IMG/VR virus record: IMGVR_UViG_2695420698_000007
Length of the DNA: 4,507 bases
Origin: a virus
Lineage: Duplodnaviria; Heunggongvirae; Uroviricota; Caudoviricetes
Strand: one strand, 5' to 3'
The translations under genes and the position numbers were made by a program. This document shows, piece after piece, positions 3,397-4,477 of this stretch. Below the pieces are notes generated by a model. That model ran no database searches, was not told the origin of the DNA, and saw only the letters and a program-made list of their open reading frames with translations. How positions within the stretch are numbered: the stretch's first letter is position 1; the number at the start of each line of letters is the position of its first letter.

Positions 3397-3452
3397 TTAA
3401 GTCCCCTTAAATGCGCAGAAGTCACCGGAGTTGTTCAGGCTCCGATGAGAGG

Positions 3453-3481
3453 ATTATGGCGGATTGATTACGATAAATCAA
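3453..3481 (-). promoter_or_regulatory. Candidate sigma70 promoter driving the nin operon (minus strand)
   Basis: Minus strand reads TTGATT (3481..3476), a 17-nt spacer, then CATAAT (3458..3453). That is 4/6 and 5/6 matches to consensus with ideal spacing. The predicted start near 3446 gives a ~50-nt leader to the small ORF at 3396. Confidence 0.3.
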
Positions 3482-3568
3482 AACTATCTTGAAGCCAAAA
3501 CAGTGATCTTCGCTTTAAAAACCTTGTATACTTTCACCTAATCACAGCCAGAACTATGGATCTAACCA

Positions 3569-3946
3569 ATGACCAACAAAGAAAACAAAGATAAATATAT
3601 TAACAAGTTCAAGAAAGAGCTTTCAAAATATATACAACCAACTGCTGGAGTGGACATTCAATTATTTAACTCTAAGGATGGTGGTGGTGTAATTAAAGCC
3701 ACTTTGAATAGAAGTGGAAAAAGAAAATCATCTATTGCTGGTAATTTTACTAAATTAGGTGAGGCAATTACCTCGAGTGGGCAGAGGGTTTTTGGTGGTG
3801 ATCTATCAAATGTGAATTTTTACGGAACAAATACGATTTTTGATGGAGATACAATATTTTTAATTAAATCACCTGATTCAGAGGAGTGGTCATCACAAAA
3901 AGCTTCCAAAGACGTAGAGGGCATCGTATTTGGAGGGAAAAAATGA
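3569..3946 (+). CDS. Hypothetical protein, 125 aa: lysine-rich, soluble, no recognisable family; first gene of the AT-rich cargo cassette
   Basis: Long ORF in a strongly AT-rich segment, with AT-biased codon choice consistent with real coding. N-terminus MTNKENKDKYINKFKKELSKY is Lys-rich with no signal peptide or hydrophobic helix. Repeated Gly-Gly motifs occur (DGGGV, FGGDL, FGGKK). The ribosome-binding site is weak (GGA 8 nt upstream). Stop TGA at 3944-3946. Confidence 0.55.
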   Translation: MTNKENKDKYINKFKKELSKYIQPTAGVDIQLFNSKDGGGVIKATLNRSGKRKSSIAGNFTKLGEAITSSGQRVFGGDLSNVNFYGTNTIFDGDTIFLIKSPDSEEWSSQKASKDVEGIVFGGKK

Positions 3947-4028
3947 TTAACATTACTACTAAGGATGCACTCAAGTCAGTGGTGAAGTAAGAGATCTAGT
4001 AATTCTTCTTGAAACTGATGGAAAAACG

Positions 4029-4370
4029 GTGTCTGATTATTTGCAGCCAATCCCTCCCAAAAAAGATACACACTGGAGCATGATTTTCATTCCGGTAGCA
4101 ATTTATATACTACTTAATCTTGTATACATTATTGCTCACCCATTATTTCCTGAAAAATATCTAAAAACATCAACATCTATATTTCTATTCATTTCCTTCA
4201 TATTAAGTGCAATAGTAGCATATTTTGTTTTCCATAAGCATAAATCTGCCACTCTATCCATATGCAGCTTAGTGTTCTTAGTGTTAATTGTAGGTGCTAA
4301 CGTAGGGTTTATCAGTTACAGCGACCTAACACAAAAAGCGACGCAAAAATTAGATAGTTTGTCTAAATAA
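4029..4370 (+). CDS. Hypothetical small integral membrane protein, 113 aa, with three predicted transmembrane helices and a charged C-terminal tail
   Basis: Three hydrophobic stretches of about 20 residues: IFIPVAIYILLNLVYIIAHPLF, IFLFISFILSAIVAYFVF and LSICSLVFLVLIVGANVGFISY. They are separated by short basic loops (KK, HKHK), followed by the polar tail SDLTQKATQKLDSLSK. The start is uncertain: GTG at 4029 per the ORF track, or the in-frame ATG 17 codons downstream (MIFIP...). Stop TAA at 4368-4370. Confidence 0.5.
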   Translation: MSDYLQPIPPKKDTHWSMIFIPVAIYILLNLVYIIAHPLFPEKYLKTSTSIFLFISFILSAIVAYFVFHKHKSATLSICSLVFLVLIVGANVGFISYSDLTQKATQKLDSLSK

Positions 4371-4477
4371 TTATGTTGCCATGCGAAGTATGCATGGCTG
4401 CATGTCTGCCTTCCATTTAAAATGGGCTAAGACCTATAACCCTAAATATTATTCTTTATTATCTTCTTTACCACTTC

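Follow-up and report, generated by a model that had tools for sequence, protein, structure and literature searches.

We found that a 4507-bp stretch of DNA from IMG/VR virus record IMGVR_UViG_2695420698_000007 (Caudoviricetes; hereafter the window) carries the decayed copy of a conserved, horizontally mobile operon of two genes, one encoding a small soluble protein (A) and the other a small membrane protein (B). The DNA is a piece of a lambdoid prophage of the DLP12 type; in intact relatives the pair runs antisense to the early-right operon, with the replication gene P on one side and ylcH-ybcN on the other. We tentatively propose, at somewhat below an even chance, that the pair is a defence module in which A would be the cytoplasmic sensor or regulator and B the membrane effector, with the copy in the window inactivated.

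The first-pass annotation of this DNA, made from its letters alone, described an open reading frame (ORF) at 3569-3946 encoding a basic soluble protein, and this description holds: A has 125 amino acids (aa), an isoelectric point of 9.5 and a grand average of hydropathy of -0.62. A matches the family phrog_18061 over the entire profile (E 9.3e-85, positions 1-125 of 125), and the two nucleotides at which the window copy differs from its relatives are both synonymous (GCT/GCA and GTG/GTA). For the second ORF, annotated at 4029-4370, the three hydrophobic helices are real, while the start and the length were mis-called. The real gene encodes 142 aa from the ATG at 3943, which overlaps the stop codon of A as ATGA (3943-3946), and it is frameshifted in the window. 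Base-by-base alignment locates the lesion at codon 9, where one G of a GG pair is missing (GGATGGCACT becomes GGATGCACT, the remaining G being at 3967), so that only A keeps an intact reading frame here. Because of this frameshift, the match of the B remnant to phrog_16940 (E 2.2e-74) begins only at profile position 30 and covers positions 30-142 of 142. Intact B consists of a conserved N-terminal soluble segment of ~36 aa followed by three transmembrane (TM) helices, and the 36 residues lost in the window show the highest conservation in the family alignment. Hydropathy and AlphaFold2 (AF2) agree on the three helices, the AF2 model showing three long helices at a moderate predicted local distance difference test score (pLDDT) of 72, and the positive-inside rule predicts an N-in/C-out topology. 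With the membrane gene a pseudogene, automatic ORF calling misleads, as in the 113-aa 'protein', and the intact allele is represented by WP_000182282.1 together with WP_000608370.1.

The frameshift does not stem from a sequencing error, since exactly the same 113-aa remnant ORF recurs in ~150 assembly blocks and in IMG/VR locus L034 (L numbers denote the loci compared here). B is therefore a real pseudogene fixed in a lineage. With its membrane gene frameshifted, the window copy of the module is very probably inactive. Furthermore, a second lineage, represented by L042, has independently acquired an inactivating frameshift in B, and A is intact in both. B thus looks dispensable or costly, and its loss with A retained fits a costly effector.

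For the window alone, it is highly probable that nothing functional remains, and that we are looking at a pseudogenised relic in a prophage eroded by IS1 in which A has been kept by chance: B is broken at codon 9, P is truncated by IS1, and in L028 the remnant has IS1 at either end. Against this stands the fact that A is still intact and differs from its relatives only at synonymous positions. This account concerns the state of one copy rather than the nature of the module, and it is compatible with a defence function of the intact pair. The deletion site is intact in all complete E. coli carriers (0 of 46 with the deletion), and both genes are under purifying selection.

The evidence for this selection comes from a comparison of E. 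coli-type and Klebsiella-type copies, which gave a nonsynonymous divergence (pN) of 0.14-0.20 and a synonymous divergence (pS) of ~0.70, that is a dN/dS ratio of 0.08-0.10 (~0.08 for A and ~0.09 for B), with invariant lengths of 125 aa for A and 142 aa for B. Because dN/dS is this low and the lengths are fixed, A and B are, by this measure, real genes under strong purifying selection. An exhaustive profile search extended the A superfamily to 111 cluster representatives at E <= 1e-3, nearly all of 120-135 aa, with conserved positions Y10, G39, F84-x-G86-T87, K100, W107 and D115. In all 11 contexts sampled (E. coli, Klebsiella-type, L010, L011, L014, L018, L022, L023, L024, L048 and L049), down to ~20-25% identity in A, the gene after A encodes a 3-TM partner, whether A stands alone or has an N-terminal extension. 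In most of these contexts the two genes overlap by 4 nucleotides (nt), the layout also found in the window, and hhalign identifies these partners as homologues of B (probability 94%, E 1.4e-7). The co-occurrence and the homology of the partners bear out the earlier view that the two genes form a true conserved pair and are not chance ORFs. Few E. coli strains carry the enterobacterial pair, which is present in 46 of 5426 complete genomes; tblastn with A and B found no match to it in GenBank phages or PLSDB plasmids, and a scan of species-representative genomes found no relative.

In mosaic lambdoid prophages of the Klebsiella and Enterobacter type the replication, Q and lysis modules all differ, while the pair, its position and its orientation are the same. 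The placement 'between the nin operon and an IS1 end' proposed initially has to be revised: the IS1 junction is secondary, IS1 having truncated the prophage in gene P, although the IS1 end itself was correctly recognised, 4478-4507 being an exact IS1 terminus. Both genes do lie on the plus strand, divergent from the nin genes, as annotated.

Next to the same conserved genes, other prophages carry other cargo. In K-12 and O157:H7 the P/ylcH-ybcN slot contains ren-emrE-ybcK(-ybcL-ybcM). In E. coli Ec1115 (L052 5365-6998) it contains a retron-type PRTase_III-A-like protein and NADAR, and in E. coli AR_0077 (L053 5211-8201) a Septu-like ATPase and nuclease pair (PDC-M62A, E 3.5e-44; PDC-M62B, E 5e-34) in the same antisense orientation, also with matches to PtuA/PtuB. 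The P/ylcH-ybcN junction of DLP12-type prophages is a cargo hotspot and looks like a defence hotspot; we found no description of this junction as a hotspot in the papers searched. Previous studies have described defence hotspots in P2/P4 temperate phages and satellites (Rousset et al. 2022, PMC9122126) and prophage-borne phage defence (PD) systems (Vassallo et al. 2022, PMC9519451). The present slot resembles the P2/P4 hotspots in being a fixed position between conserved phage genes that accepts alternative cargo, including the Septu-like and PRTase/NADAR genes; it differs in being the P/ylcH-ybcN junction of DLP12-type lambdoids, and the A/B pair is absent from the PADLOC-2.0 models derived from the hotspot and PD studies.

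The pair is not confined to this slot. It is carried by lambdoid and other prophages, with 18 IMG/VR prophage loci, by an integrative and conjugative element (ICE), where it accompanies TrwC/TraG, a caspase-like peptidase and a DUF4238 gene, and by an island beside ligA. On a small plasmid-like contig (L048 1-4826) with genes for a Rep of the Replicase/PriCT_1 family, a MobC/NikA-like protein and a relaxase, A-B is the only evident cargo, and the start of A overlaps the end of rep. The distant A-B pair of L018 has BrnA, Gp49/HTH and two GNAT genes as islet neighbours, and the gene directly downstream of the pair (5982-6557) matches PD-Lambda-3_B with E 6e-83.

Furthermore, we found a protein in which A is joined to a different partner. 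P0104 (447 aa; L020/L021 246-1589) combines an A domain at residues 3-122 (hhalign 99.1%, E 1.7e-18), an HNH endonuclease at 191-231 (Pfam HNH, E 1.3e-12) and an uncharacterised C-terminal region of ~200 aa. It is a single-gene variant, no 3-TM partner being visible on its short contigs, and only its HNH part matches nuclease models in PADLOC. A further variant, seen in L049 (258-3051) and L050, has three genes. The first encodes 545 aa and gives a weak GHKL-ATPase (HATPase_c) signal, the second is A with an N-terminal extension of ~110 aa, and the third is the 3-TM partner; this may be an extended version of the system.

We then compared both proteins with known families. As the first-pass annotation had stated, neither is recognised: A and B have no significant match in Pfam, NCBIfam or PADLOC (B giving only sub-threshold noise in its TM region), A has no PDB relative by sequence (chance-level profile matches, E >= 0.027), and both PHROG families are annotated without function. 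The structure prediction and fold search recommended there yielded generic or non-significant matches only, the AF2 model of A being weak (pLDDT 58, topology alpha-beta-beta-alpha-beta-beta-alpha). A Pfam scan of 71 A-family members returned no recurrent or significant family and no recognisable DNA-binding domain in A, nor is a signalling-enzyme or hydrolase domain detectable in it. We found no description of WP_000182282.1, WP_000608370.1 or the pair in the literature searched, an earlier discovery in a 2025 prophage-defence screen being possible. Neither protein family has been characterised or appears in the defence catalogues queried, whereas cargo consisting of a soluble partner and a small membrane effector is already known as a kind.

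Under our proposal, the operon would be expressed in the lysogen from its own promoter, because it lies antisense to the early-right operon in the P/ylcH-ybcN slot. A would be a cytoplasmic alpha/beta protein of ~125 aa acting as sensor or regulator, and B, translationally coupled to it through the ATGA overlap, would be docked to A by its conserved N-terminal segment. Infection by another phage would then lead B to compromise the membrane, resulting in abortive infection, or to prevent entry. The A-HNH fusion seen in at least one relative would amount to an effector swap, the nuclease having taken the place of B. The hotspot, the ICE and plasmid contexts, the PD-Lambda-3_B neighbour and the A-HNH fusion lend contextual support to the resemblance to abortive-infection, toxin/immunity or exclusion modules suggested initially, and the missing PADLOC match takes support away.

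Several results weigh against this proposal. An anti-phage function is suggested by genomic context, and the association with defence genes comes from a handful of loci and not from a statistical enrichment; the neighbours of the pair in L011 and L024 have no PADLOC matches. No model of PADLOC-DB 2.0 matches the window A and B, five divergent A/B proteins or the L048 pair at E <= 0.01. The A-HNH fusion is one cluster, found on two near-identical short contigs, and the small-plasmid and toxin-antitoxin islet contexts fit an addiction module equally well. The promoter scan gave no more promoter-like sites than chance would (6 vs 4.8 expected from shuffling), so that expression in the lysogen is a matter of expectation from orientation.

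A wider claim is possible but rather doubtful, namely that A/B founds an unrecognised, phylum-spanning defence family of mobile elements in which A is a new sensor or regulator fold wired to a 3-TM or an HNH effector, and that the P/ylcH-ybcN junction is a hotspot comparable to those of P2/P4. If the intact pair does provide phage defence, the bacterial immune repertoire gains a compact system (~0.8 kb) that is widely distributed, has a new sensor domain and can exchange its effectors. The junction would then also mark a cargo hotspot that is easy to mine, as DLP12/lambdoid prophages are very common in Enterobacteriaceae.

We consider it unlikely, while deserving of weight, that the pair is a toxin-antitoxin (TA) module with B as a membrane toxin and A as its co-translated antitoxin, together stabilising the carrier element by post-segregational killing. 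Like membrane-toxin TA modules, the pair consists of small genes in a compact bicistron with translational coupling, in which the small soluble gene comes first. The Rep and Mob plasmid-like contig has no other evident cargo, the pair sits among the BrnA and Gp49/HTH TA genes in L018, and loss of B with A kept has been tolerated twice. Unlike membrane-toxin TA modules, the pair shows no homology to any known toxin or antitoxin family (nothing significant for type II families in the Pfam and NCBIfam scans of A and B or in the Pfam scan of the 71 A-family members), neither an antisense RNA nor a known RNA family turned up, and A lacks a recognisable DNA-binding domain for autoregulation. In E. 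coli CV839-06 (L001 6270-7127) an independent IS1A insertion breaks A after ~50 codons and leaves B intact, which would be lethal for a classical TA pair unless the insertion is polar; as polarity is likely, this disruption says little on function. The prophage defence hotspot and the A-HNH fusion suit defence at least as well, and addiction and abortive infection are not mutually exclusive.

It is quite improbable that the pair acts in envelope superinfection exclusion (Sie), with inner-membrane B blocking genome entry and A in an accessory or stabilising role, without cell suicide. HK97 gp15, P22 SieA and T4 Imm block the genome entry of incoming phages. B is likewise a small, prophage-encoded inner-membrane protein, its three TM helices are well predicted, and its gene is antisense to the lytic operon, as expected of a gene expressed in the lysogen. 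However, the pair is also carried by an ICE, by a small plasmid and by chromosomal islets of distant phyla, settings in which receptor- or channel-specific exclusion is less expected, and the A-HNH fusion implies that A senses or regulates in the cytoplasm and that the killing effector can be exchanged. Furthermore, the search for homology to known Sie proteins (SieA/SieB, Imm, HK97 gp15) came back empty, with neither a Pfam or PHROG annotation nor a fold match in BFVD at E < 0.1.

Nor do we give much probability to lysogenic-conversion cargo unrelated to phages, that is genes for membrane stress, transport or host interaction in the manner of emrE or the porin. The occupation of the same slot by emrE/ybcK/ybcL/ybcM in K-12 and O157, the absence of defence-model matches and the two PHROG families without assigned function are in line with it, but a host function tied to one niche would hardly account for the strict A-B pairing across phyla and element types, the HNH fusion and the PD-Lambda-3_B neighbour, and the rarity of the pair in E. 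coli also speaks against it. B as a class I (3-TM) holin is rejected, as it sits between P and nin, antisense and far from essD/rrrD, with no Pfam or PHROG holin match and BFVD holin matches only at E >= 1.3.

The proposed defence function has an instructive parallel in RexA/RexB of phage lambda, an abortive-infection system with a cytoplasmic sensor and a small polytopic membrane effector. Both are two-gene, prophage-borne systems expected to be expressed in the lysogen, both pair a soluble protein with a multi-pass inner-membrane protein of ~140 aa, and by analogy the logic may be the same, the sensor activating the membrane effector. The two systems differ in sequence, neither A nor B having similarity to RexA/RexB or a significant Pfam or PADLOC family; in size, A having 125 aa vs ~279 aa for RexA; in topology, B having 3 TM helices and an N-terminal soluble segment (hydropathy and AF2) vs 4 TM helices in RexB; and in location, the pair lying between P and nin instead of in the immunity region. 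Moreover, the function of A and B is a proposal. The combination of a soluble component with a small multi-TM effector is also seen in Rst_Hydrolase-3TM and other candidate systems of a soluble and a small TM protein, and in the TM effectors of CBASS, Thoeris and retrons. These systems swap TM or nuclease effectors on a common sensor, which parallels A with a 3-TM partner and A-HNH; no PADLOC model for any of them matches A or B.

We also re-examined the composition and the boundaries of the cassette. The abrupt change in composition reported initially is real: windowed analysis gave 33.8% G+C across 3569-4370 (60-nt windows 20-48%, mean 34%) vs 57.7% in ybcN (windows 50-68%). The earlier count of ~55% for ybcN was about right, whereas 25-30% for the cassette was too low as an average. 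The foreign acquisition deduced from it is correct insofar as the pair is horizontally moving cargo, but low G+C is not a trait of the family: it characterises the enterobacterial copy and a few others, and copies in other hosts match their flanks.

The cassette is also shorter than the 3421-4477 first assigned to it, since cassette-specific DNA begins near 3484 and 4449-4477 is the 3' end of gene P. The comparison with prophages lacking the insertion, which had been suggested for this purpose, fixed the left edge of the slot, homology to prophages with other cargo (blastn vs L051, L052, L053, L054 and L025) stopping at 3482/3483, and revealed alternative cargo in the same slot. Klebsiella-type copies align only over 3568-4385, essentially the two coding sequences.

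To the left, the ylcH-like ORF has its start codon within a perfect 10-bp inverted repeat at 3392-3401/3406-3415 (CGCATTTAAG / CTTAAATGCG, 4-nt loop). The block of ~160 nt around this repeat is 93% identical in prophage L054 despite the presence there of NinB in place of YbcN, and for this reason it appears, by sequence comparison, to behave as a conserved module junction or regulatory element. The own promoter of the pair is presumably within 3484-3568. To the right, the hairpin that directly follows B is possibly a terminator. A second hairpin at 4424-4442, terminator-like on the minus strand and right after P, lies within the same 78-nt junction between the stop codons of B and P, and the two could form a bidirectional terminator insulating the antisense cassette. 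No Rfam family was found anywhere in the window.

Table 1. Features of the A/B cassette and its flanks in the window.
Feature	Position	Strand	Details
ylcH-like ORF, 32 aa	3301..3399	-	overlaps ybcN start; nin-side flank, outside the cassette; 33-codon hypothetical coding sequence in L003, ylcH in K-12
Conserved flank block	3322..3482	.	ylcH and ~80 nt upstream; common to prophages with different cargo; ends at left edge of the variable slot (blastn)
Cassette-specific upstream region	3484..3568	+	TATACT -10-like hexamer at 3527-3532, weak ribosome-binding site; no conservation with Klebsiella-type copies
Gene A, intact	3569..3946	+	125 aa, basic soluble; identical to WP_000182282.1; member of phrog_18061
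Shine-Dalgarno GGAGGG for B	3932..3937	+	inside the 3' end of A, 5 nt before ATG 3943; read from the sequence
Gene B, pseudogene	3943..4370	+	intact form 142 aa, WP_000608370.1, phrog_16940
Frameshift stub, 15 aa	3943..3990	+	MINITTKDALKSVVK, then stop; by translation
Remnant frame of B, 113 aa	4029..4370	+	reopened frame from GTG, no Shine-Dalgarno; without the best-conserved N-terminal segment of the family
Hairpin, stable	4377..4398	+	right after B stop, convergent junction with P; fold z-score -3.17, 0/200 shuffles as good
Gene P, last 29 nt with stop codon	4449..4477	-	cut by IS1; identified by aligning the annotated P of L002 and L003
IS1 terminal inverted repeat	4478..4507	.	exact 30-nt match adjoining the IS1A transposase gene in L001; IS1 genes then follow in L026-L028

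The rest of the window consists of the minus-strand genes quuD, ylcG, rusA, ybcO, ninE and ybcN beside the ylcH-like ORF, and of an intact NmpC/OmpC-like porin gene on the plus strand (160-1242, 360 aa). The porin copy of the K-12 DLP12 prophage is split by IS5, while the copy in the window is unbroken.

Assemblies with the exact window variant are mostly contigs of ~5 kb bounded by IS1, with IS1 at both ends in L028, and accordingly the prophage is eroded to an IS1-flanked remnant of ~4.5 kb. The source name of a partial identical protein (P0002) suggests Shigella sonnei as the possible host. With the window and CV839-06, IS1 has struck the cassette or its flank at least two times. Beyond IS1 (~4850), the chromosomal genes vary among assemblies of the window lineage, with mutS and hypothetical genes in L026 and DAO/bssS in L027, which suggests IS1-mediated rearrangements or several junctions.

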